From an uncultured Bacilli bacterium (GTDB lineage: Bacteria; Bacillota_I; Bacilli_A; RF39; UBA660), in the NCBI GenBank assembly GCA_934096405.1, contig CAKOLW010000005.1, positions 1 to 63,893 of the forward strand: DNA of 63,893 nt, read 5' to 3'. Positions 17,454-61,699 of this stretch are shown one piece after another (the first letter of the stretch is position 1; every line of letters starts with the position of its first letter). Both the position numbers and the translations under genes were made by a program. The notes below the pieces were generated by a model, which saw nothing but the letters and a program-made list of their open reading frames with translations, ran no database searches and was not told where the DNA came from.

Positions 17454-18860
17454 ATGAATCAGACAAAAATTGGTAAATATTTATCTAAAAAGAGAAAAGA
17501 AAAAGGATTAACTCAGGTAGAGATGGCTAAGATTATTGGAGTTACTGATCGTGCAATATCTAATTGGGAAAATGGTAGAAGAATACCTGATGTAAGTTTA
17601 TTTAATAATATTTGTGAGGTATTAGATATTACAGTTAATGAACTAATAAATGGAGAAGATATTTCTAAAGATAAAGTTATAAGTAAGAATAATGAATCTT
17701 TGATTAAAGTGTTAAAGAATAATAAAAATAATAAAAGAAGGTTTATTTATGTATTAGGAATATCTATAGTGTTTGTGTTTACATTAATCTTTTGGAGTTA
17801 TAAGAGTATTTATCCTAAGATAGATATTTATAGTATTATATTAGATGCAGATGATCCTGATAAAGGTTTTAAAACTATTAAGAAGTTTACTTATGATAAT
17901 AGAGATTATTACTACTATGGTATTACTGGAGTTAGTCTGTGTGATATAAATGGAAAGTGTTATGAATTAGAATCTAGTTTGAAACATGGACAAACGAGTT
18001 TAACTAAAATTAATGAATATTTAGATAGTCAAGTAAATTTAGGGAATACTACTAGTGAATTTCTTTATGATGGTGGGACTACTATATATGGAAATGAAAG
18101 ATATCAAATAGCGATATGTAAAACTTTAGATGATAATAAAGATGTTTATATTGGATTAGATGATATGATTAATAATTTAAATGGTAAATATTGTGGACGA
18201 AGTGAAAATAAAGATAAGAGTTTTAAAAGAACATATTATGTAAGTAGTGCTTCTATAAGCGATGATAAAGAATTTAGCAAAGTACATTTAGTTCAAAGTG
18301 ATGGAGAGTCAGATTATGTTTTACTTAATATTACTAATAATTTAGTTGTTGGTAAGACTTATGAGTTTTCGTTTTTGGCTTTTGATGAGTTTGAAGATAC
18401 AATATCTAATTTATTTGAATATGCAACTATTATAGATATTAAATTAGCAGAAGAAGATATAAATGAAGATATTATTGTTAATGAAAAATATGAAAGTAAT
18501 GGAGAGTTAAATGAAGTAGATAATGTTAGTATGGAGATAATGGAGGGCACTTTAACAAAAGAGGGCGCTAGTGTAATAATAACTGATTTAAATAAAGATA
18601 AAAATGGATTTGGTTTATATTATAGAATAGATAAAAAAGAAAATGATGAGTGGAAACCATTGGAAATAATATGTGATAATTGTGCATTTAATGAGCCAGC
18701 ATACTTTGTTGATAGAAATAATAAATTAGTATTTCATATGAATTGGAAAGAATTATATGGACCATTAGATAAGGGATACTATAGAATAGTAAAAGATGTA
18801 TGTGTTGGTGAATTTTGTGAAAGTCATAAATATTTTTCAGTAGAATTTAAAATTGATTAA
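17454..18860 (+). CDS. Membrane-tethered XRE-family HTH regulator with a large extracytoplasmic domain
   Basis: N-terminal HTH (KGLTQVEMAKIIGVTDRAISNWENGRRIP), TM (FIYVLGISIVFVFTLIFW) and a ~350-aa C-terminal region. Confidence 0.8.
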   Translation: MNQTKIGKYLSKKRKEKGLTQVEMAKIIGVTDRAISNWENGRRIPDVSLFNNICEVLDITVNELINGEDISKDKVISKNNESLIKVLKNNKNNKRRFIYVLGISIVFVFTLIFWSYKSIYPKIDIYSIILDADDPDKGFKTIKKFTYDNRDYYYYGITGVSLCDINGKCYELESSLKHGQTSLTKINEYLDSQVNLGNTTSEFLYDGGTTIYGNERYQIAICKTLDDNKDVYIGLDDMINNLNGKYCGRSENKDKSFKRTYYVSSASISDDKEFSKVHLVQSDGESDYVLLNITNNLVVGKTYEFSFLAFDEFEDTISNLFEYATIIDIKLAEEDINEDIIVNEKYESNGELNEVDNVSMEIMEGTLTKEGASVIITDLNKDKNGFGLYYRIDKKENDEWKPLEIICDNCAFNEPAYFVDRNNKLVFHMNWKELYGPLDKGYYRIVKDVCVGEFCESHKYFSVEFKID

Positions 18861-48699: not shown

Positions 48700-48721
48700 A
48701 TTTGGAGCAGGTGATGGGAAT
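48700..48721. repeat. attL: 22-bp direct repeat ATTTGGAGCAGGTGATGGGAAT
   Basis: Identical to 56264..56285, which is the 3' end of tRNA-Gly (complement). Confidence 0.85.
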
Positions 48722-48736
48722 TGTCTCCAAAAAAAT

Positions 48737-48961
48737 ATGAGACCTAGATGTTTACAAGATGTATATTTTGTAATGTATGACCTAAAAGATAATCTTGTGT
48801 GCTTTTTTGATAATACTGATGAATTATCACGTGTAACAAAAGTACCAAGATATCAAATTAATGATTATTTTAAAAAGAAAGGAGATTATATTTATATTAA
48901 AGTTTATGGTCGACTTTATAAGTTGTATAAATATAATAAAGAAAAATATGATTTCATGTGA
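48737..48961 (+). CDS. Element-encoded small protein, unknown function (possible regulator)
   Basis: 74-aa ORF immediately inside attL. No recognisable motif. Confidence 0.4.
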   Translation: MRPRCLQDVYFVMYDLKDNLVCFFDNTDELSRVTKVPRYQINDYFKKKGDYIYIKVYGRLYKLYKYNKEKYDFM

Positions 48962-49286
48962 TATTGAAGAAAAGTTAATATATGATATTATTGATAGTTG
49001 TTTAGATAATAAGACTTTTATTGATCAATTTTATTACATAATGGGAGTGTCTGATAAAGCTGTTAAGATCGCTCTAAAAAAATTTAAAATTCTTCACCCA
49101 TTTTTAAAAGTTGAATTATCACAAATAGAAAAATTATTAGTTATAAGCTATAAACTTAGATCTATTAGCATAATTTTATCTTCTACGAAGGTTATGAGTG
49201 GCTTTTATGATATTTCTGTAATAATTGAACAACTAAATCACTTATCTTTAGATTTATCTTTAATAAGTTTGAGAAAATCATTTTAA
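48948..49286 (+). CDS. Element-encoded protein, unknown function
   Basis: ORF open from 48861. The ATG at 48948 (MISCDIEEK...) overlaps the previous stop. Start uncertain. Confidence 0.4.
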   Translation: MISCDIEEKLIYDIIDSCLDNKTFIDQFYYIMGVSDKAVKIALKKFKILHPFLKVELSQIEKLLVISYKLRSISIILSSTKVMSGFYDISVIIEQLNHLSLDLSLISLRKSF

Positions 49287-49405
49287 TTGATTTTCTTTTT
49301 TTATACTTCGAGATAAATTTTTTAGATAGATGACTAAAAAATTTACGTCAATTCTTTTTTTCTTTTTAAAGCATGATATATTTTATTCATGGGGAGGTGT
49401 AAAAA

Positions 49406-49555
49406 ATGAATAGCAAGCCAATAAATGCTACGTTAGAAACACGTACATCTGCAAAAAAAGGTACTACTTATAAAGTTGTGGTAATTAAACTTACTCCAAC
49501 ATATGAAAAATTAGTATTCTTAGACAAGGCTGAAATTGAATTATTAAATAAATAG
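49406..49555 (+). CDS. Small 49-aa protein (positional candidate for an ssDNA-binding or accessory protein)
   Basis: ggggaggtg SD. MNSKPINATLETRTSAKKGTTYKVVVIKLTPTYEKLVFLDKAEIELLNK. Not in the ORF track (too short). Confidence 0.45.
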   Translation: MNSKPINATLETRTSAKKGTTYKVVVIKLTPTYEKLVFLDKAEIELLNK

Positions 49556-49591
49556 CACCTCTTAATTTTTTTGAAAGGAGGTAGTTAATAA

Positions 49592-49768
49592 ATGGATGCT
49601 TTTATTACTGCATTAACTGCTGCTGAAGGTGGACTAAGTGCCGCTTCATTTTATGGAGTACTTACAAGTTTAGTACCATACTTAGTAGTTATCATCCCAG
49701 TTGCATTAGGTTTCTACTTTGTTAGAAAGTTAATTAAGGGAAGTGCAAAAGCAAAAGTTAGACTTTAG
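49592..49768 (+). CDS. Major-coat-protein-like gene, copy A (58 aa)
   Basis: aaaggaggtag SD. MDAFITALTAAEGGLSAASFYGVLTSLVPYLVVIIPVALGFYFVRKLIKGSAKAKVRL: a short polar N-terminus, one TM helix and a Lys/Arg-rich C-tail, as in inovirus g8p. Confidence 0.65.
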   Translation: MDAFITALTAAEGGLSAASFYGVLTSLVPYLVVIIPVALGFYFVRKLIKGSAKAKVRL

Positions 49769-49801
49769 TTGATTTAACTATCTCGAAAGGAGGGTTATTC
49801 A

Positions 49802-49975
49802 ATGGACGCTTTTATTACTGCGTTAACTGGAGCTAAAGGACTAAGTGCTGCTTCATTTTATGGAGTACTTACAAGTTTAGTACCATACTTAGTAGTTATT
49901 GTTCCAGTTTCATTAGGTTTCTACTTTGTTAGAAAGTTAATTAAGGGAAGTGCAAAAGCAAAAGTTAGACTATAA
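49802..49975 (+). CDS. Major-coat-protein-like gene, copy B (57 aa)
   Basis: aaaggaggg SD. Differs from copy A by four substitutions and one missing Gly. Confidence 0.65.
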   Translation: MDAFITALTGAKGLSAASFYGVLTSLVPYLVVIVPVSLGFYFVRKLIKGSAKAKVRL

Positions 49976-49982
49976 TTTTGCT

Positions 49983-50023
49983 CACGTTAACATTATTTTT
50001 AAATTTTGTTGACGTGTTTTTTT
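49983..50023 (+). terminator. Terminator-like hairpin directly after the coat genes
   Basis: cacgttaac / gttgacgtg stem (one G.U pair) with a 16-nt loop, then T7. Confidence 0.55.
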
Positions 50024-50040
50024 ATTTAATAGGAGGTAGT

Positions 50041-50184
50041 ATGATTGAACAATTAAATTGTTGTATTTTCATTTTAAAAATGCAATTGGATTTTTATGAC
50101 TTAACAGGTAAAGAAAAAAAATTAATATTAATGTGTTTACATTATTTAAGAAAATTAAAAAAGGAGGTAGAAAAAAATGTTTGA
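50041..50184 (+). CDS. Small element protein (47 aa)
   Basis: taggaggtagt SD directly before the ATG at 50041. The longer track ORF (49978) would run through the terminator hairpin. Confidence 0.45.
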   Translation: MIEQLNCCIFILKMQLDFYDLTGKEKKLILMCLHYLRKLKKEVEKNV

Positions 50185-50290
50185 AGCAATGGAAAAAGTA
50201 TTGATTGAATTTATACAATATATTCCTTATTTAATGGGAATTTGGGTTATTTTTGATTTAACAGGAAGTTTGTTGTTTAATAGGAGGTAG
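50177..50290 (+). CDS. Small hydrophobic protein (37 aa), minor-coat-like (g7p/g9p-like by size and position)
   Basis: aaggaggtag SD. MFEAMEKVLIEFIQYIPYLMGIWVIFDLTGSLLFNRR. Ends 1 nt before the next gene. Confidence 0.45.
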   Translation: MFEAMEKVLIEFIQYIPYLMGIWVIFDLTGSLLFNRR

Positions 50291-50291
50291 T

Positions 50292-51239
50292 ATGAAGAAA
50301 ATAATTATAATATTAGGATTATTACTTTTTGTACCTGGATTTTTATCAGCTGATACATATTATAATTGGGAACAAGTACAAGTTGATACTTTACCTGAAC
50401 CAACTAAAGATATTATGAATAAAGTTTATATTAAAGATGATAAGTATTATGTTGTTAAGGAAGTCTTAGGAGAAGTTACACCTCTACAAATTGGCGATAG
50501 TATGAATGGTAGAACATTTTATAATGCTATACCTGATAATTTGATGGAACAAGATGTTTGGAAAAATTTATCTAATTGTAGTGATTATTATTATTGTGGA
50601 GGACCAGTTATTGCTTCTGATGGTAATCCATTTGGATTTTATATTAATTATACTAAAGGTGAATTTAAGTTATCGTATAAAGAAAAAGGTTATTATTCGC
50701 TTATTTACATTAATGTAAATAATGTTATTACTTTAAATAAATTTAATTCAGTCTATAATTATGATCTAGTTTTTACTGAAAGATATAGTGTAAATATGTT
50801 TTCTGGTCATCCAGAGTTATATGAGTTTATAGATTACATTTTTGATCATATTAGTACAACACCTTTAGAAAATACTTATGAATGGTTAGAAGTAGATAAG
50901 TCAGATGTTTTGCCAGTTGTAGAAAATAAAATTTATGTACCTTCAGCAAATTTATCTTGTTATAGATTTATTGATAGAAATACTTTAAGAGGTTATTTTA
51001 CAAAACCGATTGTTGGAGATAAAGTTAATTTTTATGATTTTTATTTAGATCAACATTATAATTCAGTTACTGGTAACGAAACATTAAATGAAGATATAAC
51101 ATGCTTGACTAATATTACTACAAATTATTTATATCGTAATGATATAGTTGAGATATTAATATTTTTTATGATTGTTGGCTTTTTTGTATTTTATATACCA
51201 GTTAAAATTTTATTTAGGTTATTTAGGAGGTTTAGTTAA
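50292..51239 (+). CDS. Secreted, C-terminally membrane-anchored protein (candidate g3p-like adsorption/minor coat protein)
   Basis: Signal peptide MKKIIIILGLLLFVPGFLSA and C-terminal TM IVEILIFFMIVGFFVFYIPV plus a basic tail. taggaggtagt SD. Confidence 0.6.
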   Translation: MKKIIIILGLLLFVPGFLSADTYYNWEQVQVDTLPEPTKDIMNKVYIKDDKYYVVKEVLGEVTPLQIGDSMNGRTFYNAIPDNLMEQDVWKNLSNCSDYYYCGGPVIASDGNPFGFYINYTKGEFKLSYKEKGYYSLIYINVNNVITLNKFNSVYNYDLVFTERYSVNMFSGHPELYEFIDYIFDHISTTPLENTYEWLEVDKSDVLPVVENKIYVPSANLSCYRFIDRNTLRGYFTKPIVGDKVNFYDFYLDQHYNSVTGNETLNEDITCLTNITTNYLYRNDIVEILIFFMIVGFFVFYIPVKILFRLFRRFS

Positions 51240-53149
51240 TGAAAAAAATATTTAATTGGACAATTGGAAGTTTTTTTAAAACTTTAGGTAGAATTATATC
51301 ATATTTATTTATTGGTGGAGTCTTATTTTATATTGCTTCTAAATATGATTTGTTAAGTTTTGCAAAATTAGACGCTAGTACTTTTTCATTTACTTATGAT
51401 TATGATCAAGATATGTTAGATAAATTACCTTCAAAATGGTTTGGTTCAAATGGTTGGTTATCTAGAGTTAGTAATTTTCTTAATTATCAAAGAGATTCTA
51501 TCTGGATTTCTAAAGATACTATTTATTTTATTAAAGGTACTTATAGTAGTATGACTACTAATCAAATTCGTTTATATGTTACTTATGATGATGTAGATTT
51601 TAAATATTCTTTAAAGCTAACAGGTGCTAAAATATATGCCATTTCTACTGAAACAGAATTAAATAATTTTATTAAAAATTACAAATATAATTATTCTAGT
51701 TTAGATTATCAAACTTCTATTGATTTAAGTTGTAATACTTCTGAGTCTATTATTGGTTCTGATTTTTCTGGACCAAAATGTGATAAATTCTTACTGCCTT
51801 TTTATAGAAATGGAGTCACTTATTTTATTTATAATGATACTTCATTTTATAATCTTAATTTTTTTGGTATTCCTATAATAGGTTCTGATTCTTTTGGTTT
51901 AGAAGATGAAATGAATATTTTTCTTTATGATAAATATGGTTTTGATAAACCTGATCTTAATAAACTAAAATATGTTTACAATAATGCTATAATTCTTGAT
52001 ACAGACAATCTTAATAATGCTACATCTACTTTTTCAATTAATCTTTTAGATAATAAAGAACCTATTATTAAATCTTTTCAATATTATGGCTTAGTTAATG
52101 ATAATGGCTTATATCATTATGAATTATTAGATAATATAACTGACTTTGATTATACTACTACTTTTACTAATAAAAAATTTACATTTTCTTTTAATACTAA
52201 TGCATTTACTTATACTGATATTTCTACTTATGAAAAGATTTATGTTAAAATTAATTATCAAGAACCTTTTAAACATACAAATAATGGCTTTACTTATACT
52301 TTAGGTACACAATATACTTATCAAATTATACTTAATACCTTATGTGATGATTGTGTTTTCCTTTCTTTAGATTCTTCTGGTAAAAACACTTATGTTTTTA
52401 GTAATAGTGACTCTAGTAAAAATACTTTATTTTATTACTCTATTATTCAAGAAAATAAAATAGTATATAATCAACCTAGTTTTATTGATTTAGCTAATAA
52501 AACTTTAATAAATTCCGATTTAACTATAAAAACATATGATACTTTTTATGGTTCTATTAATCAGCTTATTTTTAACTCTTATAATATTGGTTCTAATACT
52601 GGATTAATAATGAATCTTTATATGAATGATATGAGCAAGATGTATAACCTTTCGGGAGCATATCAGATTATCTATTTTATTTCTCCTAATTTGTATTGGG
52701 GTAATGGTGTTTATACAACAGATAGAAATCAGGTTAGTTATGATTATATTGATTCTGACGGCAATCATCAAAATGGCACTATTTCAGGAGATTTTACTAA
52801 CTCATTAAGTGACTATGATATTTCTGCTAAGTTTAACATTATTAAAGGCATTATTTCTGATGATTTTTATGGACTATCAGGAGTCATATTAAAACCTTTG
52901 GACCATATTAAAACTTTATCTACTAAAGTTTGTAGTCCAATAATATTACCTATTCCATTTACTGAAAAAAATATATCAATTCCTTGTTTTTCTACAATTT
53001 ATAATACATATGTTAAGGATTTAATTGATATATGGCACATTGTTTTATATGGAATAGTTAGTTATGGTATTGGTCTTAATTTATTTAAGACAATAAAAAA
53101 TGCAATAGAGCCTTCTGATGAAGATAATATAGAGGTGATTGATTTATGA
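51239..53149 (+). CDS. Large (636 aa) membrane-anchored element protein, unknown function
   Basis: N-terminal TM (IISYLFIGGVLFYIA) and C-terminal TM (IWHIVLYGIVSYGIGLNLF). Asn/Tyr/Ser/Thr-rich. Overlapping start. Confidence 0.6.
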   Translation: MKKIFNWTIGSFFKTLGRIISYLFIGGVLFYIASKYDLLSFAKLDASTFSFTYDYDQDMLDKLPSKWFGSNGWLSRVSNFLNYQRDSIWISKDTIYFIKGTYSSMTTNQIRLYVTYDDVDFKYSLKLTGAKIYAISTETELNNFIKNYKYNYSSLDYQTSIDLSCNTSESIIGSDFSGPKCDKFLLPFYRNGVTYFIYNDTSFYNLNFFGIPIIGSDSFGLEDEMNIFLYDKYGFDKPDLNKLKYVYNNAIILDTDNLNNATSTFSINLLDNKEPIIKSFQYYGLVNDNGLYHYELLDNITDFDYTTTFTNKKFTFSFNTNAFTYTDISTYEKIYVKINYQEPFKHTNNGFTYTLGTQYTYQIILNTLCDDCVFLSLDSSGKNTYVFSNSDSSKNTLFYYSIIQENKIVYNQPSFIDLANKTLINSDLTIKTYDTFYGSINQLIFNSYNIGSNTGLIMNLYMNDMSKMYNLSGAYQIIYFISPNLYWGNGVYTTDRNQVSYDYIDSDGNHQNGTISGDFTNSLSDYDISAKFNIIKGIISDDFYGLSGVILKPLDHIKTLSTKVCSPIILPIPFTEKNISIPCFSTIYNTYVKDLIDIWHIVLYGIVSYGIGLNLFKTIKNAIEPSDEDNIEVIDL

Positions 53150-53451
53150 CAACTTTAATAAATTCTACTTTAAATGTATTGTTTTCTTTAATTTCTACAT
53201 TTTTAAAAATAATTTTAGCACCTATTGATACTTTGATTATGAATGGATTACCTGATGTAGAAATACTTATAGAAAAATTATCTGACTTTCTTGTTTTGTG
53301 TATTGCTTTTGTTGGTTGGGTAATTGACGCTTTGGCTATACCTTCTGGAGTAATTACTCTTATAGTTTCATACTTTACTTTAAAATATAGTATATTATTA
53401 ATTTCTATTCCGATAAAAATTGTGATAAGGTGGGTGAAAACTTTAAAATGA
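53146..53451 (+). CDS. Small polytopic membrane protein (g6p-like by size and position)
   Basis: 101 aa with three hydrophobic segments. Overlaps both neighbours. Confidence 0.55.
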   Translation: MTTLINSTLNVLFSLISTFLKIILAPIDTLIMNGLPDVEILIEKLSDFLVLCIAFVGWVIDALAIPSGVITLIVSYFTLKYSILLISIPIKIVIRWVKTLK

Positions 53452-54110
53452 TAGGTTTATTTTTAATGTTATTAATTTTTATATTATTATATCTAATTTT
53501 TATAAAAAAAATAAAAATTAAGTTTAAGACTTTTTTTAAAAAAGGCTTTAAAGTTGCTCGTGGTTCATTTGGTGTTTATTGTTATTGTGGCAAACAAGGT
53601 AGTGGTAAAACCTATTCCGTTGTAGAATTTTTGAGAGAAAATTCGGATTTACCGATTTATGCAAATATTAATACAATAACTGGAGTTGATTATACTTATT
53701 TTGAAGGCTTCGAAGAATTATTAAAACTCCGTGATAAAACTGATTGTATTATTGTCTATGATGAAATATTTACTGCTTTAACAAAAAATTCTAGAATGAG
53801 TTCTGAAGTTTTATCATTTTTAAGTCAAATGAGAAAGCGAAGAATAATATTTTTAACTACTGCTCAGGAATGGTTAGAAATTAATATAACACTTCGTAGA
53901 TATTGTAGATATCAAATAGATTGCATGATGTTTAACTTCTTTGGATTATTTGGTATCTTAAAAAAGTCTTTTTATGACGCTGAACATATGAAGTGGAGTA
54001 ACGATGATAATGAGTATATAGCACCAATTATAAGTACAACTATTAGTAAAGCAAATCTAGTTGTCGCTAATTCGTACGACACTTTTGAGCAGATAAATAC
54101 ATCGAAATAA
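53448..54110 (+). CDS. P-loop NTPase, candidate Zot/g1p-like morphogenesis ATPase
   Basis: N-terminal TM, Walker A GKQGSGKTYS, Walker B CIIVYDE. About 220 aa. The ATG at 53448 follows an aaggtgggtg SD. Confidence 0.6.
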   Translation: MIGLFLMLLIFILLYLIFIKKIKIKFKTFFKKGFKVARGSFGVYCYCGKQGSGKTYSVVEFLRENSDLPIYANINTITGVDYTYFEGFEELLKLRDKTDCIIVYDEIFTALTKNSRMSSEVLSFLSQMRKRRIIFLTTAQEWLEINITLRRYCRYQIDCMMFNFFGLFGILKKSFYDAEHMKWSNDDNEYIAPIISTTISKANLVVANSYDTFEQINTSK

Positions 54111-54305
54111 AAAGTCAATGAAAAAACGGAATAAAAGCGAAGCGATTATGCCGGATTTGGAATTGTACTTTTTAAAGGTATAAAATAATTGAAATATAAC
54201 TTCAAAAAACATTTTTTTTGAAGTTTACGCCCTACGGCGAGTAGATAAAAGTTTTTGTACCACTTTTTACAAAAAGTGGTAAATAAAATACAATTGGTCG
54301 ACCAT

Positions 54306-54333
54306 ATAGGGGGTGTACTACGACACCCCCTAT
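54306..54333 (+). promoter_or_regulatory. Double-strand origin hairpin with pMV158-type nick sequence TACTACG/AC
   Basis: Perfect 11-bp GC-rich stem atagggggtgt/acaccccctat with loop actacg. TACTACGAC lies at 54316..54324, about 320 nt upstream of the Rep gene on the coding strand. Confidence 0.7.
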
Positions 54334-54372
54334 GGGAGACTTGTGACATGTGACAAAAAAGGAGGAAATTTT

Positions 54373-54645
54373 ATGAAATATGCTAATAATAAAAATTATT
54401 ATAAGGAGGACAAAGATAATTTGAATAACAACCCTTTTAAGTATCGTTTGACTTATTGTGGCGCTTGTATTTATCAATTGACTAGAGGTAAGTATAAAGT
54501 TGTTTATCAGTGTTATAGTTTTTCAAGTATGTATAAATTTATACAAAAGAATAATATTAATTTAAAAGAAATTCATTTACCTTATATGACTTTAAATGAT
54601 TTTTTAAGAGATTGGGCTACTTTTGAGGGGAATGATATAATATGA
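54373..54645 (+). CDS. Element protein upstream of rep, unknown function (90 aa)
   Basis: aaaaggagga SD before the ATG at 54373. Overlaps the rep start by 4 nt. Confidence 0.5.
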   Translation: MKYANNKNYYKEDKDNLNNNPFKYRLTYCGACIYQLTRGKYKVVYQCYSFSSMYKFIQKNNINLKEIHLPYMTLNDFLRDWATFEGNDII

Positions 54646-55211
54646 AGAAAAATAGATATTGGGCGTTTGTACTTTATTTAGAAAGTGCTCCAGAAAATTG
54701 GAAAGAACTTTTACAATTAACGGGGTTATCAATTTGTATTAGTCCTTATCATGATAAGGACAAGAATCCTGACGGAACACCAAAAAAACCACACTATCAC
54801 ATCATTTTATGTTTTGGTGGACCGACAACCTTTAACAACGTTAAAACTATTACAGATAGTTTGAATCAACCTATACCGATTCCTTTACAACAGGTTAAAG
54901 GTTACTATAGATATTTAACACACAAAGATAACCCCGAAAAACATCAGTATAATGAATCTAATATAGAAACCTTAAATGGCTTTAATATAGATGATTATGT
55001 TGACCTTACATATAGTGAGGTAAATTCTATCTGTATATCTATTCAAAAACTCATTATAGATAATAATATACTTGAATATTCTGTATTACTTGATTATCTA
55101 TTACATAATGAGTTATTTACCGAACTTCAAGTTGCTAGTAATCATACATTGCTCTTTAATACTTATATTACTTCAAGAAGAAATAAAATAAAAAGTCAAG
55201 CATTAAAGTAA
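54642..55211 (+). CDS. rep: Rolling-circle replication initiator, RepB/pMV158 (Rep_2, HUH) family
   Basis: RYWAFVLYLES..W...L......ISPYHDKDKNPDG..KKPHYHIIL (HUH motif) and YRYLTHKD (catalytic Tyr region), colinear with pMV158 RepB. Confidence 0.85.
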   Translation: MKKNRYWAFVLYLESAPENWKELLQLTGLSICISPYHDKDKNPDGTPKKPHYHIILCFGGPTTFNNVKTITDSLNQPIPIPLQQVKGYYRYLTHKDNPEKHQYNESNIETLNGFNIDDYVDLTYSEVNSICISIQKLIIDNNILEYSVLLDYLLHNELFTELQVASNHTLLFNTYITSRRNKIKSQALK

Positions 55212-55318
55212 TTTACAATTTAAATATTTAATGTTATATTAAATATGTGAAGTGTGGTGGTTGACATGAGTTAGAAAAATGTATATAATATTGCACCTGT
55301 AAAGGGGTGTGATAGATA

Positions 55319-56260
55319 ATGAACTTCAATGAAGTTTATTTAGAATATTTAAAATTTGCCGAAAAACAGCAAAAGAAACAAGGTTTTAATAGTTTGTTAA
55401 ACAATTTTAATTCAAGAATATTACCTTATTTTAAAGATATGAGGTTAGAAGATATTACAAGAGATGATATTGTTTCTTGGGAAAGTTATATTTTATCATT
55501 GGGGTTTAGAAACAATTATAATAGAAATCTTTATTATATGCTTAGTGGTTTCTTTACTTTCTGTCATAATAGATATAATTTTGATAAGACAATAATTAGT
55601 GATGTTGGATGTTTTAAAAAGATATATGAAAAAAAGAAAGAGGATTTTTACACTTTAAAAGAATTTAATCTCTTCATTAGTAATGTTGATGATTATATGT
55701 ATAAAACCTTTTTTATCTTCTTATTTTATACTGGAGTTCGTCCAGGGGAGGCAATGGCACTCAAATTAAGCGATTTTCAAGGCGATTATATCAATATTGA
55801 TAAAACTATTGACTCACATGGAAAACGTGAAATAGGTACTCCAAAAACATTCTCTAGCATTCGTAAAATTAAAATAGATAAATTTTTGAAACGAGATTTG
55901 AAACAATTAATAAAAAATTATTATAAGGAGGGTAGTGGAGATTTATTTCTCTTCGGTGGTTTGAAACCCTTAAGTCCTACTACAATCAATAGGCATAAAT
56001 TTAGTGCTTGTAATAGATGTGGTTTAAGACCGATTACCTTACATCAATTTAGACATAGTCATGCTACTTTATTATTAGATAAAGGCATTATGATTAATGA
56101 GATAAGTAAAAGGTTAGGACATTCTAAGGTATCAACCACATTAGATATTTATACTCATACTAATTCAACACAAGAAAAAAGAGTATATAATATACTCTGT
56201 TCCTCGAGATTTAATCTCAATAGTCTGTTAAACAATTTATTAAAACTTAATAAGTTTTAA
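55319..56260 (+). CDS. int: Tyrosine site-specific integrase
   Basis: GVRPGEAMAL (Arg I), HQFRHSHATLLL (H-x-x-R), LGHSKVSTTLDIYTH (catalytic Tyr). Ends 4 nt before attR. Confidence 0.9.
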   Translation: MNFNEVYLEYLKFAEKQQKKQGFNSLLNNFNSRILPYFKDMRLEDITRDDIVSWESYILSLGFRNNYNRNLYYMLSGFFTFCHNRYNFDKTIISDVGCFKKIYEKKKEDFYTLKEFNLFISNVDDYMYKTFFIFLFYTGVRPGEAMALKLSDFQGDYINIDKTIDSHGKREIGTPKTFSSIRKIKIDKFLKRDLKQLIKNYYKEGSGDLFLFGGLKPLSPTTINRHKFSACNRCGLRPITLHQFRHSHATLLLDKGIMINEISKRLGHSKVSTTLDIYTHTNSTQEKRVYNILCSSRFNLNSLLNNLLKLNKF

Positions 56261-56263
56261 CCT

Positions 56264-56285
56264 ATTTGGAGCAGGTGATGGGAAT
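56264..56285. repeat. attR: 22-bp direct repeat overlapping the tRNA-Gly 3' end
   Basis: Identical to 48700..48721. Confidence 0.85.
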
Positions 56286-56340
56286 CGGACCCACGTTATT
56301 AGCTTGGAAGGCTAGAGTTCTACCATTAAACTACACCTGC
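56267..56340 (-). tRNA. tRNA-Gly (anticodon TCC)
   Basis: Minus-strand sequence GCAGGTG-TA-GTTT..GAAC-T-CTAGC-CTTCCAA-GCTAA-TAAC-GTGGG-TCCGATT-CCCAT-CACCTGC-T-CCA. Very similar to Bacillus tRNA-Gly(UCC). Confidence 0.9.
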
Positions 56341-56979: not shown

Positions 56980-58203
56980 TTATATTCTATCAAATTCGTT
57001 TTTACTTTTTAAAATTACTAGTGTTATTAATGCAACGGCTAACATACATGAACCAGCAATAATGTATTCAGCAATTCCTGTTTGAGGATTAACTATTTTT
57101 TCACCAAGAATCATTATTTGTGGACTACATTCTTGATCATCTACTAAATTATCAGCTGGATAGGAATCATTAATTGTTACTGAAGAATTACCTATAATAG
57201 TTGTACCATTTACTTTAACTTGTCTATTTGTTCTTAAAGTAATTTTATCTACTAAAGTAGAATCAACAACATCTTTTATTTTTAAATAATAAGATAATGT
57301 TTCTTTTTTGTTAGATTCGATAGTATCAGCTTTCCATGTAACTTTTCCATCTGCATAATTTGCTATTCCAGTTGTTGGTTTAACTTCAACTATATCAAAG
57401 TTATCAATTATATAACTATCAAATGATACAGTAGTTTCCATGTTATTTTTAGCTCTAGGCATTAAACTTTCTACTACAGTTGCTGCGTTAAGTGTATTAA
57501 GATTTGTACTTACAACATCAACTCTTGCTGTAGCAGTACTAAATATATTATTGAAATTAGTTTTATCAGTCATATCAATATTATAAGCATAAATTTGAAT
57601 ACCACTGCTAGTATAAGATTCAACTTTTGATTTTAATGCAGTTACATCAACTTCATTTAAAGTACCTAAATTATTTACAACTAATATTATAACTTTAGTT
57701 CCGTTTGATGAACTAAGCTCTCCAGCTGCTTTTTCTAAGCTATCAAATATTTCTCCATTATTACTACTAGAAGCTGTAGTTTTAACATTATTTAAATTAC
57801 TTTCAATTTTTGTAGTATCTAATGGATTTAAAGTTGTCTCATTATTTGTTGTTACAGCTACGCCTTGTCTTACAGCATTTCTTCCTTCCAATAAATTTGC
57901 ACTAGTTTTTAAAGAGTCAATAACATTAGCTTTAATACCTGACATTGTACTACTGTTATCAATAACGTACATAACATCAATATCTTTAGAGTTGTCAATT
58001 ACAATATCAATTGCAACTTTACCATTTGCTAAATCAGATTTTTCTGTATTAATGGTGTTTAATATATTAGCACCATCACTACTTAATACCTTTTTAGCAA
58101 AGTTTTCTTTAACTACTTTTACGCTGTTATTAGCGGCATTTAATGTGCTGACTCCTAGCAAAACACTCAATAGAAGTGTGCTTACTAATAATCCTTTTTT
58201 CAT
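56980..58203 (-). CDS. Cell-wall-anchored von Willebrand factor A domain protein with NPQTG sorting signal
   Basis: Signal peptide and MIDAS motif VIDNSSTMSG. C-terminal NPQTG, a hydrophobic stretch (IAEYIIAGSCMLAVALITLVIL) and a charged tail (KSKNEFDRI). Confidence 0.85.
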   Translation of the reverse strand: MKKGLLVSTLLLSVLLGVSTLNAANNSVKVVKENFAKKVLSSDGANILNTINTEKSDLANGKVAIDIVIDNSKDIDVMYVIDNSSTMSGIKANVIDSLKTSANLLEGRNAVRQGVAVTTNNETTLNPLDTTKIESNLNNVKTTASSSNNGEIFDSLEKAAGELSSSNGTKVIILVVNNLGTLNEVDVTALKSKVESYTSSGIQIYAYNIDMTDKTNFNNIFSTATARVDVVSTNLNTLNAATVVESLMPRAKNNMETTVSFDSYIIDNFDIVEVKPTTGIANYADGKVTWKADTIESNKKETLSYYLKIKDVVDSTLVDKITLRTNRQVKVNGTTIIGNSSVTINDSYPADNLVDDQECSPQIMILGEKIVNPQTGIAEYIIAGSCMLAVALITLVILKSKNEFDRI

Positions 58204-58324
58204 TTTTTCCTCCTTATCATAATCTAATTATATCATGTCATTTTGTAAATTTAAAGAATTTTGTTATATTTTTTCTTTATAAACGTAATTATTTATGCTA
58301 AACTTAGACTAGGAGAGAGTTGTT

Positions 58325-59911
58325 ATGAAATTAATTAGTTTAATAATAAATAATAATACTGCTATTGTAGAGATAATTAATAAACGTTTTAGTAGAGATA
58401 TTAACAATAATGTTATGAATAACAATACTCTTTTATATACTTCATATTTTATAAGAAAGAATAAAGAAGTAATTAATGAAATATTAGAAATTAAGTATAT
58501 AGAAAATTATATATATAAAGATTTTGAAAGCTTTTATGTATTAGGTAGTATAGTAAGTGGGAGTAGTGTAACTTTTGATATAGAAGAATCTCTTACTGTT
58601 AAGGCTTGTAATATATTAGTTAGTATGAAAAGACTTAAATATGTAAAATGTTATTTTATGCCTAGTGATTATGTTCATAAATTAGCAGAAAAAAATATTT
58701 CAGTTAATTTTACTAATGATTATAGTTTTACTAGTGATTTTATAAATAGTAATGGATTTAAAAATTTAAAAAGTTTATATTATAAAAAAATTATTTATTT
58801 TTATAGAGAAGAGGATGTTTATAATAATTTAGAAGATTTTTTGAGAGTAAATATTTCTTTGAAAGTTATACATTTATATTTTTATTCTACTAAATCTATA
58901 AAATATATTACTGAAGAATTAACTAAGTATAAAGAAAATGAAGTTAATATTTATATACATCTTAATGATTTTAATAAAGAAACTATTAAAAATGATGTTA
59001 ATAACTTAAGAGATATTAACAAAAAATTTAATAAAAAAGATAAAAAAATAAAGATTATATATAGTAATGATTTTTTTAATAACAATATTTTTAAAGAACT
59101 TACTTTAAATACTATTAAATTATGTTTAGTGTTAATTATGTATTTGGGATTAATATTAATTATATCTAATAAATATCATGAATATTTGGCTCTTGTAGAA
59201 CTTAGAAAATTGGAAATGTCTTTAATAGAAAATAATAGTCAAGTAAATGACAATATAGATGAAATAGATGATATACAAGAAATAGTGGAACCTGAGCCAG
59301 ATAATAATGAAGAACCAGTTGATGAAGAACCTAAGTATGTAAACTATTATGCAAATATACCGACAACTTTTGACAAACTTTTACAAATTAATAAAAATGT
59401 AGTGGGATGGGTAACTGTTAATAATACTAAGGCTAATTATCCTGTTTTACAAGGTCCTTATAATGAATTTTATAATACTCATGATATTTATGATAGAGAA
59501 GTAATTACTGGATGGATTTATATGGATTCTAGAAATAATAGTAAAGAGTTAGATCAAAATACTATAATTTATGGACATAATTTAATAAGTGGGTATATGT
59601 TTGGAGATTTAAAGAGTACTACTAATTATAGTTGGTATACTAATCCAGAAAATAAATATATTACTTTTAATACATTAGATAGAGAAATGAAATGGGAGAT
59701 TTTTTCTATATACAGAATAGATTATACTACTGATTATTTAAAGACTAATTTCTTTAATGATAAACAGTATAATGAATTTATAGATTTAATTAAAAATAGA
59801 AGTATATATAATTTTAATGTTAATGTTAATCCAACTGATAAAATATTGACTTTATCTACTTGTTCAGGTAGTTCTAGAAGATTAGTAATTCATGCAAAAT
59901 TAGTAAATTAA
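58325..59911 (+). CDS. Class B sortase with a ~250-aa N-terminal cytoplasmic extension
   Basis: C-terminal ~190 aa: VVGWVTV..TKANYPVLQG, IIYGHN, LTLSTCS, RLVIHAKL (SrtB hallmarks). Preceded by a TM (LCLVLIMYLGLILIISN), an acidic linker and a long unassigned N-domain. Confidence 0.8.
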   Translation: MKLISLIINNNTAIVEIINKRFSRDINNNVMNNNTLLYTSYFIRKNKEVINEILEIKYIENYIYKDFESFYVLGSIVSGSSVTFDIEESLTVKACNILVSMKRLKYVKCYFMPSDYVHKLAEKNISVNFTNDYSFTSDFINSNGFKNLKSLYYKKIIYFYREEDVYNNLEDFLRVNISLKVIHLYFYSTKSIKYITEELTKYKENEVNIYIHLNDFNKETIKNDVNNLRDINKKFNKKDKKIKIIYSNDFFNNNIFKELTLNTIKLCLVLIMYLGLILIISNKYHEYLALVELRKLEMSLIENNSQVNDNIDEIDDIQEIVEPEPDNNEEPVDEEPKYVNYYANIPTTFDKLLQINKNVVGWVTVNNTKANYPVLQGPYNEFYNTHDIYDREVITGWIYMDSRNNSKELDQNTIIYGHNLISGYMFGDLKSTTNYSWYTNPENKYITFNTLDREMKWEIFSIYRIDYTTDYLKTNFFNDKQYNEFIDLIKNRSIYNFNVNVNPTDKILTLSTCSGSSRRLVIHAKLVN

Positions 59912-59929
59912 AAAACTGAAGGTTAAAAT

Positions 59930-61699
59930 TTAATCTTCAGTTTTATTTATCATCCAACTATTAAATATGTCAGCATTAGCACTTTCTGGAGGTGGTGATG
60001 CTTTTTCCATTTTAACTATCATTGGAATTTTAAGTATTCTACCAAATGCAACACATGTGCCTGGTTGTAAGCTTTTTTGTTTTTCTATTATATCTGCACT
60101 CATGTTAGGTATCATTCTTGTTATGTAGTCTAGGTCTTCTGGATGTGTTATTTTAAATATTATAAAGTTGTCTGCTTGGCTTATAACATTACTATTTAAG
60201 TCTGTGGGTCTTTGAGTAATTAAGTCTAATAGTACTCCATGTTTTCTACCTTCTTTTGCAACTCTTTCAAATATATTATAACCTAGTAAGTCCACATCAT
60301 CATTTTGTATAACATATCTATGTGCTTCTTCTAAAATTATATGTAGTGGTATACTAGCTCTTGGTTCATTTACTTTACCAAATGCTAAAAAAAGTCTAGC
60401 AAATATTTTTGTTACAGTTCTTGCAAATCTATCATCTACATCTTCTAAGTTAATGTTTATAACTTGAGCTTTTTTATTATCTTTTGTAGTTACTAGATAA
60501 GCTATAAATTCTTTTATACTGTTGTATTTTTTATCAGTAAAGAAAATACTATTAGAACTATTTATTAGATTATGTAGTTTTACTTTTAAACTAATTGCTT
60601 CATCATACATGTCTGGATTTAATAAGTATCTTTCACTAAATAGGGTAAAGTTTAATGCTACTTCTAATTCTTTTAGACCATATGTTACGTTAGATGTATC
60701 TATATTCCATTTTTTATCATCTTGTATAAAACTTTCTATGTATTCAGCTATTATCGTTCTTTCTGCAAATCTTCCTTCACTGTCTATATCAAAACAATGT
60801 CTGAATACTCTTGTAAAACCTACACCTGGGATTATTGCATTTAAATTAATTTGATCTGTGTATGTATTGGCAACTATATCAAATATTTGGTCTCTTATTT
60901 TAGCACTTGTTTGATTAGTATACATTATTGAAGTAATTGCTTTAGCTAATAAGTGATTTTTGTATTCTATAACTTCTTTAGAGTTTGAAGAAAATATTTT
61001 GGCAAGTTCAATAGCACTTTCTACTATAGATATTTGGCTAAATTTAGTAGCGTCTAGTATGTTTAATATATCATCTATAGTTAATAATGATACTGGTATT
61101 TGTAGTTTTTCATTACCTTCATTGATTAATCTTTTATTTGTAGTTATTAATTTGTAGTGTAAGTTTTCGTTTATTTTGTTTAAGTCTTTGAAAGCATTAA
61201 TGTATTCTCCATATGAATCAAATATGAACATATTAGCTTTATATGGAAGAGCTTGCATGTTATATACGTTTTGTATTATTCTACATATTCCATATGTTTT
61301 ACCACTACCAGAATTACCAAATATAGCAGAGTGATTACTAAATAAGTCATTTAAGTTAACACTTACAGGATAATCTTTATATAATGGACTTACTCCTAGA
61401 GTAAAACTCATTTTGTCTCCACCTACTAATACATGTAATTCTTTTTCATTTATTATTCTAACTTTGGCATCTAAACTAGGTTTTTTTATTAAACCTCCTA
61501 CAAAGTTAGTATCATTTATTTCTCCTAAAAAATTTATTTTAACACTAGAACCATCTATGTCTTCAACTTCTCCTAGAATTCTTTTATCTTTGTCTTCAAA
61601 AATAACATGTAAGTTTAAGATATCTCCTAGATTTTTGGCATCTATGGTTAGATTTACTATTGCATAATTTTTATTTATTGCTTTAATATTGCCAAACAT
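59930..61699 (-). CDS. HerA/DUF87-type ATPase (FtsK-HerA superfamily), stand-alone
   Basis: N-terminal barrel-like region (AIVNL...LHVIFED...ILGEVEDI), Walker A GNSGSGKTYG, Walker B HIILEEAHRY, KEGRKHGVLLDLITQRPTDL. Confidence 0.8.
   Translation of the reverse strand: MFGNIKAINKNYAIVNLTIDAKNLGDILNLHVIFEDKDKRILGEVEDIDGSSVKINFLGEINDTNFVGGLIKKPSLDAKVRIINEKELHVLVGGDKMSFTLGVSPLYKDYPVSVNLNDLFSNHSAIFGNSGSGKTYGICRIIQNVYNMQALPYKANMFIFDSYGEYINAFKDLNKINENLHYKLITTNKRLINEGNEKLQIPVSLLTIDDILNILDATKFSQISIVESAIELAKIFSSNSKEVIEYKNHLLAKAITSIMYTNQTSAKIRDQIFDIVANTYTDQINLNAIIPGVGFTRVFRHCFDIDSEGRFAERTIIAEYIESFIQDDKKWNIDTSNVTYGLKELEVALNFTLFSERYLLNPDMYDEAISLKVKLHNLINSSNSIFFTDKKYNSIKEFIAYLVTTKDNKKAQVININLEDVDDRFARTVTKIFARLFLAFGKVNEPRASIPLHIILEEAHRYVIQNDDVDLLGYNIFERVAKEGRKHGVLLDLITQRPTDLNSNVISQADNFIIFKITHPEDLDYITRMIPNMSADIIEKQKSLQPGTCVAFGRILKIPMIVKMEKASPPPESANADIFNSWMINKTED

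Follow-up and report, generated by a model that had tools for sequence, protein, structure and literature searches.

More than 10,000 inovirus-like sequences were mined by Roux et al. in 2019, among them hundreds of prophages recognized by direct repeats of 10 bp or more in a tRNA gene or beside an integrase (PMC6813254). Six candidate families were proposed, some of them associated with monoderm hosts, and inovirus replication and integration genes were found to be widely exchanged with other mobile elements (PMC6813254). A clade of Inoviridae from human-gut Firmicutes has low-GC genomes of 5.6 to 9.4 kb, a stand-alone Zot in all members, Reps apparently acquired from plasmids and, in Ino-06, a tyrosine recombinase after the Rep gene (PMC8530359). 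The element described here lies in contig CAKOLW010000005.1 of an uncultured Bacilli bacterium (assembly GCA_934096405.1); all 63,893 nt of this stretch are referred to as the window. It is very probably an apparently intact temperate inovirus-like (Tubulavirales) prophage, with integration at tRNA-Gly, RepB-type rolling-circle replication (RCR), Zot-driven assembly and nonlytic release. The family assignments of its Rep, integrase and ATPase, as well as its gene set and order, follow from the sequence comparisons given below.

The element is a site-specific insertion at the 3' end of a tRNA-Gly(UCC) gene, beside a tyrosine integrase. An earlier sequence-only reading of the window had noticed a 22-bp repeat whose right copy ends an intact tRNA gene, and both copies of this repeat, ATTTGGAGCAGGTGATGGGAAT, are exact; by our arithmetic, about 3e-6 exact 22-mer repeats would be expected by chance within ~11 kb. 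The tRNA-Gly(tcc) gene is predicted by both ARAGORN and Rfam, and its span shows that 19 nt of the right copy form the 3' end of the tRNA and the other 3 nt lie outside the gene. One repeat copy and the DNA between the two amount to 7,564 bp. Two contigs of the same species from other samples, L054 (Hadza gut metagenome) and L055, were found through the exact GNAT protein encoded left of the element and hold the empty attB site that had been proposed: the left flank, a single repeat copy and then the tRNA, with nothing between. They fix the boundaries independently of the repeat. The same prophage is present at 99.9 to 100% identity in at least five other contigs, and the coexistence of occupied and empty contigs therefore indicates a discrete insertion that part of the host population carries and part lacks. 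Samples with the element are ERZ28614142, ERZ27287180, ERZ27287193, ERZ28613787 and ERZ27287381, as well as Logan runs ERR7738657 and ERR7745994. An integrase adjoining the att site, repeats duplicating a tRNA 3' end and an empty site, all found here, are the features of tRNA-targeting integrative elements. The integrase reading frame ends 3 nt before attR, not 4 nt as read earlier. All plausible open reading frames (ORFs) between the repeats are on the + strand, in agreement with that reading, and AGGAGG-type Shine-Dalgarno (SD) sequences precede most of the genes.

The pI/Zot-type ATPase is, we take it, the sole near-universal marker gene of Tubulavirales. Evidence that is weak to moderate but consistent suggests that the 220-aa protein of the element is a stand-alone ATPase of this type. 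It matched PHROG 197 (“Zot-like”) at 1.6e-7, and on its own scored 19.4 bits against Pfam Zot (cut-off, 20.3) and 24.4 bits against Pfam AAA. Pfam Zot was matched by 17 of 22 members of the ATPase family, with a best E value of 4.3e-9. The family alignment compared by hhalign matched phage B5 Orf8 with 91% probability (E = 9e-7) and M13 pI with 86% probability (E = 5e-6), and the family hidden Markov model (HMM), run against all ORFs of M13, B5 and Acholeplasma phage MV-L1, matched only M13 pI and B5 Orf8, fitting B5 (Paulinoviridae) slightly better than M13. A link to the Plectroviridae of Mollicutes was rejected, as the HMM matched nothing in MV-L1. A tblastn search of 50,697 phage records returned inovirus records only, the best at 37 to 39% identity and annotated as Zot. 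A structure predicted with AlphaFold 2 (AF2) from 30 close homologues was poor (confidence score pLDDT, 60.6); with this model, the top Foldseek match in the PDB was the Zot domain 2R2A, and the top match in BFVD was “Zonular occludens toxin [Inoviridae sp.]” (1.9e-12). The ATPase profile found nothing significant among PDB sequences. An ATPase of conjugation or partition was also considered and rejected, since no such family, nor one of the FtsK type, was matched in Pfam, NCBIfam or PHROGs. The relationship to Zot/g1p proteins predicted by the sequence-only reading was thus found by both profile and structure comparison, with moderate strength.

The ATPase family comprises 1,933 clusters at 90% identity, many on contigs of 4 to 5 kb, and 473 clusters at 50% identity (E up to 0.001); only three relatives are in IMG/VR. 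An N-terminal transmembrane (TM) helix, encoded by positions 53448-53510, is present in all relatives derived from metagenome-assembled genomes (MAGs). It is missing in bajarodino viruses 42 and 49 (L001 and L003), where the Zot reading frame starts ~10 nt downstream of the pVI-like gene. How the ATPase is tethered to the membrane therefore varies among subclades.

Scanning genomes, one for each species, identified 39 MAG loci sharing the structural/ATPase module, mostly in gut MAGs labeled uncultured Bacilli, Erysipelotrichaceae, Tenericutes or Clostridia. These loci and bajarodino viruses 42 and 49 have a common order: coat protein, 37-aa protein, the C-terminal part of the 315-aa protein, large protein, 101-aa protein, ATPase, Rep and integrase. 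Across the 39 loci, seven membrane, structural and ATPase genes keep a fixed order and the Rep and integrase genes are swapped between loci. The structural module and the ATPase are thus the conserved core, because other loci carry different Reps or have no integrase. All five integrated relatives with a homologous integrase adjoin a minus-strand tRNA gene (Gly, Glu or Ala), and in four of them repeats of 13 to 21 bp span 5.3 to 5.9 kb.

GenBank files the nearest relatives of the element under Inoviridae, as circular genomes of 4.4 to 6.7 kb. Bajarodino viruses 42 and 49 (PQ006141 and PQ006130; rodent feces) share eight genes with the element and arrange them alike: o74, coat, the 37-aa gene, the C-terminal domain of o315, the pVI-like gene, the Zot ATPase, Rep and the tyrosine integrase. 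Identity to the element is 37 to 39% for the ATPase and 45% for the integrase. The two viruses differ from the element in being circular and 5.3 to 5.4 kb long rather than integrated and 7.6 kb, in having a single coat gene and an ATPase without the N-terminal TM helix, and in carrying a protein of 110 to 114 aa in place of the 315-aa protein; their large protein has no detectable similarity to o636. The Rep of bajarodino virus 49 is only 26% identical to that of the element, whereas the Rep of bajarodino virus 33 is 53% identical. Directly behind the integrase gene, the place expected for attP, the circular genomes of viruses 49 and 33 carry a sequence resembling a tRNA 3' end, and the excised form of this prophage would be expected to look the same. 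Other related GenBank records are “Inovirus sp.” (porcine) and “Inoviridae sp. ct...”.

Several relatives differ in genome form. L041 is a circular 4.3-kb contig with a terminal overlap of 99 bp. In the cultured Erysipelothrix aquatica VA92-K48, a contig of 4,255 bp (contig00061; L036, 1-4255) carries the whole module: an o49-like protein of 53 aa, a coat protein of 55 aa, a 37-aa protein, an anchor protein of 113 aa, a large protein of 396 aa, a pVI-like protein of 99 aa, an ATPase of 216 aa that is 60% identical to that of the element, and a 243-aa Rep with no match to the Rep in the window. This contig could represent an entire episomal genome and might serve as an experimental system. Within long chromosomal contigs, L005 (7009-16173) and L012 (6816-16167) hold relatives as head-to-tail dimers without an adjacent homologous integrase, with periods of 4,567 and 4,661 bp, respectively, and 99.9% identity; these recall the tandem prophage arrays of CTXphi-type inoviruses, and an assembly artifact is possible.

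The gene order of the element parallels VIII-III-VI-I of M13 and Orf5-6-7-8 of Propionibacterium phage B5 (Paulinoviridae): coat protein, large anchored protein, hydrophobic protein of ~90 to 112 aa and ATPase. The B5 coat protein, with 57 aa and a basic tail, is like the coat candidates of the element. Outside the ATPase, however, neither B5 nor M13 has detectable sequence similarity to the element. M13 pI has a periplasmic domain as well as a C-terminal TM segment, and it requires the pIV secretin, whereas the ATPase of the element has an N-terminal anchor, and the element has no secretin. The Rep family also differs from M13 gpII, and neither M13 nor B5 has an integrase. Tubulavirales genomes are matched in the length of 7,564 bp, the single coding strand, the order coat/adsorption/pVI-like/ATPase and the lack of a convincing tailed-phage family, and in replication genes by the HUH Rep of the RepB family and a + strand nick motif in a hairpin loop, at which nicking is predicted.

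The element also agrees with the operational definition of Roux et al., as it has a pI-like ATPase, small single-TM coat candidates and repeats of ≥10 bp at a tRNA gene beside an integrase (PMC6813254). Compared by description, the “Clade-1” gut Firmicutes Inoviridae of Sugimoto resemble it in their small low-GC genomes, Firmicutes hosts and stand-alone Zot, but their predicted hosts are mostly Clostridiales, whereas relatives of the element are mostly in MAGs labeled Bacilli, Erysipelotrichaceae or Tenericutes (PMC8530359). The combination that the sequence-only reading proposed, a temperate filamentous phage with a plasmid-type RCR module and tRNA-targeted integration, is therefore supported by the ATPase, the relatives, the Rep and the nick site, but its supposed unusualness did not hold, the pattern being established (PMC6813254, PMC8530359). 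Novelty was overrated because inovirus prophages with tRNA repeats and integrases were cataloged in 2019 and the gut clade with stand-alone Zot was described in 2021.

Features of the element and its integration site are listed in Table 1.

Table 1. Features of the putative prophage, in window coordinates
Feature	Position	Strand	Evidence or remark
attL, left 22-bp repeat copy	48700..48721	+	Exact match to 56264-56285; single copy in L054 and L055
o74, small basic protein, first gene after attL	48737..48961	+	Kept in bajarodino virus 49, L004, L022, L033 and L037
o126, accessory ORF (141 aa if start is 48861)	48906..49286	+	126 aa in public assemblies
o49, conserved 49-aa soluble protein upstream of coat genes	49406..49555	+	162 homologues
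Major coat protein candidate, copy 1, 58 aa	49592..49768	+	TM residues 23-41; basic tail VRKLIKGSAKAKVRL
Major coat protein candidate, copy 2, 57 aa, recent tandem duplicate	49802..49975	+	Similarity to copy 1
o47, small accessory ORF (68 aa if TTG start 49978)	50041..50184	+	SD taggaggtagt upstream of ATG 50041
o37, 37-aa hydrophobic protein, candidate minor tip protein (pVII/pIX-like by size and position)	50177..50290	+	One TM segment
o315, secreted, C-terminally anchored protein	50292..51239	+	TM segments 4-22 and 285-303
o636, candidate adsorption protein (pIII-like by size, position and C-terminal anchor)	51239..53149	+	Hydrophobicity
o101, 101-aa protein, pVI-like by size and position	53146..53451	+	Three hydrophobic segments
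Putative stand-alone Zot/pI-type morphogenesis ATPase, 220 aa	53448..54110	+	N-terminal TM helix; Walker A GKQGSGKT; Walker B IIVYDE
Structured intergenic region with predicted double-strand origin; minus-strand origin and/or packaging hairpins probable	54111..54372	+	Single-stranded DNA fold; nick motif
o90, overlaps Rep start	54373..54645	+	SD aaaggagga; 90 aa in public assemblies
HUH rolling-circle Rep, pMV158 RepB family, 189 aa	54642..55211	+	Pfam, PDB
Sigma-70 consensus TTGACA-17-TATAAT	55261..55289	+	12/12 match; 30 nt upstream of integrase start
Tyrosine integrase, 313 aa	55319..56260	+	Pfam PF00589, 1.1e-19; PF14659, 8e-8
attR, right 22-bp repeat copy	56264..56285	+	Exact match to attL
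Host tRNA-Gly(UCC), integration target, kept intact by the repeat	56267..56340	-	ARAGORN; Rfam 65.4 bits

The two tandem genes for small proteins seen in the sequence-only reading are 95% identical over 140 nt. Both products have no signal peptide, one TM segment at residues 22-41 and the tail RKLIKGSAKAKVRL, an architecture like that of the inovirus major coat proteins B5 Orf5 and mature M13 pVIII, which makes them candidate coat proteins. They are homologous to proteins of 65 to 67 aa in bajarodino viruses 42 and 49, and coat homologues across the family have a tail charge of +4 to +6 with the consensus LRKLIKGxxKxKVR. Neither protein matched a Pfam coat family, and the assignment as coat relies on these features. 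The tandem duplication appears specific to the lineage of the element, as only one copy is present in related loci. Differences between the copies are A10G and E12 to K with deletion of one residue, both on the surface side, and two conservative changes in the TM segment. An apparent single-coat variant in L043 and L060 was rejected because the scaffolds contain a run of N.

The remaining virion candidates combine conserved and variable parts. The N- and C-terminal hydrophobic segments noted earlier in o315 are present; only residues ~210-315 match relatives, in which the protein has 110 to 114 aa, and the N-terminal ~200 aa are lineage specific. The double anchoring claimed for o636 is borne out as two segments (residues 15-33 and 595-613), which are moderately hydrophobic. 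Only the C-terminal ~100 to 130 aa of o636 are kept across loci, and its N-terminal part varies. Such proteins would fit a conserved virion or membrane anchor joined to a variable receptor-binding part. In bajarodino viruses 42 and 49, as in every related locus, a counterpart of o101 directly precedes the ATPase gene, the position of gene VI in M13 and Orf7 in B5. The 37-aa protein is kept in bajarodino virus 49 and many loci, with 27 to 57% identity.

Upstream of the coat genes, o49 is kept in most related loci (40 to 83% identity). Its AF2 model (pLDDT, 85.7) consists of three strands and one helix, and Foldseek found no PDB match with E below 0.4; the protein is a candidate for binding single-stranded DNA (ssDNA) by its position only, in the slot of M13 gene V. 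Many o49 homologues have short C-terminal extensions ending in IPFF-SDEE, LPFGK or DFP, like the acidic “IPF” tails of ssDNA-binding proteins, which is no more than a hint of ssDNA handling or of recruitment of host replication proteins. In bajarodino virus 49, o74 occupies the same position (34% identity); it matched no family in Pfam or PHROGs, and a role as regulator or excision helper would be a guess. Neither o126 nor o47 has a homologue in the related loci, and o126 has no credible match in Pfam, PHROGs or NCBIfam. No element protein matched a capsid, portal, tail or lysis family in Pfam or PHROGs. Sub-threshold PHROG matches to head morphogenesis (E = 3e-4) and terminase (E = 4.6e-3) proteins cover the P-loop region of the ATPase only. 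The absence of capsid, portal, terminase, tail and lysis genes reported earlier agrees with the lack of a convincing match in these collections.

The Rep belongs to the pMV158 RepB family by its sequence matches, to Pfam Rep_OBD (PF01719, Rep_2; 1.8e-41), to RepB_C below threshold (1.6e-5) and to RepB in the PDB (3DKX; 5.9e-20). In the PDB alignment, HYHII pairs with HYHVL and YRYLTH with YLYLTH, the HUH and Tyr motifs. The nearest plasmid Reps are from small uncultured and Mycoplasma plasmids (47 to 61% identical). The 262-nt intergenic region upstream of rep folds as ssDNA much better than shuffled controls (z = -7.4). A perfect 10-bp hairpin spans 54306-54333, and its loop holds the motif TACTACGAC (54316-54324), the nick sequence TACTACG/AC of pMV158, at its only occurrence in the window; nicking is predicted between G54322 and A54323 on the + strand. 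In 25 of 47 fetched loci the motif is kept between the genes for the ATPase and Rep, again on the + (coding) strand. The sequence-only reading was right on the Rep family and the predicted nick site. The region has strong ssDNA hairpins of no assigned class; Rfam matched the tRNA only, and no ssoA or ssoU was identified.

The pMV158 replicon resembles that of the element in its Rep_OBD with HUH and Tyr motifs and in the TACTACG/AC motif in a hairpin loop upstream of rep; the RepB_C match is weak. The element differs in having no recognized CopG-type ribbon-helix-helix (RHH) repressor and in embedding the replicon in a morphogenesis module with an integrase. At the position of the copy-control gene copG, o90 matched no RHH/CopG model and no other family in Pfam or NCBIfam. 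The integrase is 45% identical to that of bajarodino virus 49. Promoter-like sites overall are not above chance, and the site at 55261-55289 is a consensus match only; a perfect promoter sequence before the integrase gene suggests that the integrase is transcribed apart from the long structural operon.

A cycle can be proposed from these genes, in which the roles of individual proteins are inferred. The integrase would recombine the 22-bp attP core with the tRNA end, and the same enzyme would excise the circle. Rep would nick the + strand at the motif in the hairpin loop and drive rolling-circle synthesis of + strand ssDNA, the + strand being the coding strand, as in known inoviruses. Hairpins in the intergenic region would prime the complementary strand and might also mark the DNA for packaging. 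Membrane insertion of the 57/58-aa coat proteins would need no signal peptide, and the basic tails of these proteins would touch the DNA. The membrane-anchored Zot/pI ATPase and the pVI-like protein would load coat onto ssDNA and extrude the filament without lysis. The 37-, 315- and 636-aa proteins would form the tips, with the variable N-terminal parts of the two large ones binding the receptor. A secretin would not be needed in a monoderm host.

Several points weigh against this interpretation. Each single line of evidence on the ATPase is weak to moderate, and the protein itself falls under the Pfam Zot cut-off. A generic AAA model fits about equally well (18 of 22 family members), so that support from the Zot/pI marker is moderate. 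With so poor an AF2 model, the Foldseek TM-scores are low and the matches add weak support only. Coat, tip and pVI-like roles are derived from size, hydropathy, charge and position and not from homology to characterized virion proteins. No ssDNA-binding protein was identified in the element, o49 having no structural match, and no repressor is evident in it. The filamentous virion, the packaging of ssDNA and the excised circle are inferred for this element. On excision, the attP junction expected is ...AAGTTTTAACCT-ATTTGGAGCAGGTGATGGGAAT-TGTCTCCAAAAAAAT...; the exact 38-nt junction searched for, TTTTAACCT followed by the repeat and TGTCTCC, had no match in IMG/VR or JGI metagenome contigs, collections that may not hold the element. 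Its absence there says little, because close homologues of the ATPase come only from Logan and ENA and none from JGI. Contigs with o74 or the integrase show attL or attR only and no attP.

The replication module would also suit an integrated pMV158-family RCR plasmid or integrative mobilizable element that carries membrane proteins as cargo, forms no virion and moves by integrase and Rep only. The Rep and nick site are of plasmid type, the closest outside Reps are on small plasmids, NCBIfam names the integrase alone among the element proteins, and the particle is likewise deduced from the gene content. A plasmid is nevertheless quite improbable. Seven structural and ATPase genes keep their order in 39 loci while Rep and integrase are exchanged, a sign that the structural module is the core; for the ATPase, the matches are to Zot/pI, with none to a family of conjugation or partition; relatives were deposited as complete circular Inoviridae genomes from fecal samples; and no relaxase or mob gene is among the Pfam and PHROG matches of the element.

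Whether an inovirus-like prophage is still active is a separate matter. A defective or domesticated inovirus prophage, flanked by att sites and no longer producing particles, would be consistent with the lack of an attP junction in the contigs searched and with a length of 7.6 kb, compared with 4.3 to 5.9 kb in relatives, the excess including extra ORFs and a duplicated coat gene. This appears unlikely, as every conserved gene is full length with an SD sequence, copies from several samples are 99.9 to 100% identical and the exact repeats coexist with empty sites, all of which point to recent mobility. A nonfilamentous membrane-derived virus, like a plasmavirus or pleolipovirus, would have a superficially similar inventory of RCR Rep, small membrane proteins, anchored spike and small NTPase, and Foldseek also lists packaging NTPases, e.g., STIV B204 (E ~0.02 to 0.1). 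The best structural and sequence matches are to Zot/pI, however, the coat candidates have a basic DNA-binding tail typical of inovirus coats and the gene order is that of M13 and B5, so that a virus of this kind is scarcely credible and an intact inovirus-like prophage is the preferred explanation.

The host is a very AT-rich monoderm of the gut that probably forms spores. G+C content around the element in the window is 22 to 27%, and genes in the window include those for germination receptor subunits of the GerA type, a SpoVB-like protein, PriA, an anaerobic ribonucleotide reductase and a sortase. The Gram-positive spore-forming host suggested by the sequence-only reading is plausible from GerA and the SpoVB-like protein, whose matches score under the NCBIfam equivalog cut-offs. 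Three genes lie directly to the right of the tRNA (56980-61699). The first, on the minus strand, encodes a VWA-domain protein of 407 aa that carries the sorting signal NPQTG, and those after it encode a sortase-domain protein of 528 aa and a DUF87 (HerA-like) ATPase of 589 aa, a group resembling a host surface-protein or pilus-like cluster. About 30 kb away from the prophage, a 468-aa protein (17454-18860) matches helix-turn-helix models of XRE/RstR-type phage repressors over its N-terminal ~70 aa (1.4e-11, under the cut-off).

The locus leaves knowledge of this kind of element unchanged and is a clean example of a group known from metagenome surveys. To our knowledge, no inovirus of gut Bacillota has been characterized experimentally, nor has the passage of filaments through the Gram-positive envelope without a secretin been explained. 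For such work the locus offers exact att boundaries, natural occupied and empty alleles and a complete annotated parts list, and the cultured carrier of a relative, Erysipelothrix aquatica VA92-K48, is a place to test the biology. Standard pipelines name only the integrase, and elements of this kind therefore stay hidden in genome records. It is possible, although rather doubtful, that the element and its ~470 clusters of ATPases (50% identity) are a separate lineage of filamentous phages, at the rank of a family, with minimal, secretin-free assembly. If so, this lineage would occur only in very AT-rich gut Bacilli, Erysipelotrichales and related monoderms, and the tandem coat genes would give rise to mixed-coat virions. 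Its assembly machine would consist of a Zot domain of ~215 aa on an N-terminal helix, a pVI-like protein and a conserved anchor domain of ~100 aa, and its mode of assembly, including the crossing of a thick wall, would differ from that of the pI/pXI/pIV system of Ff phages.

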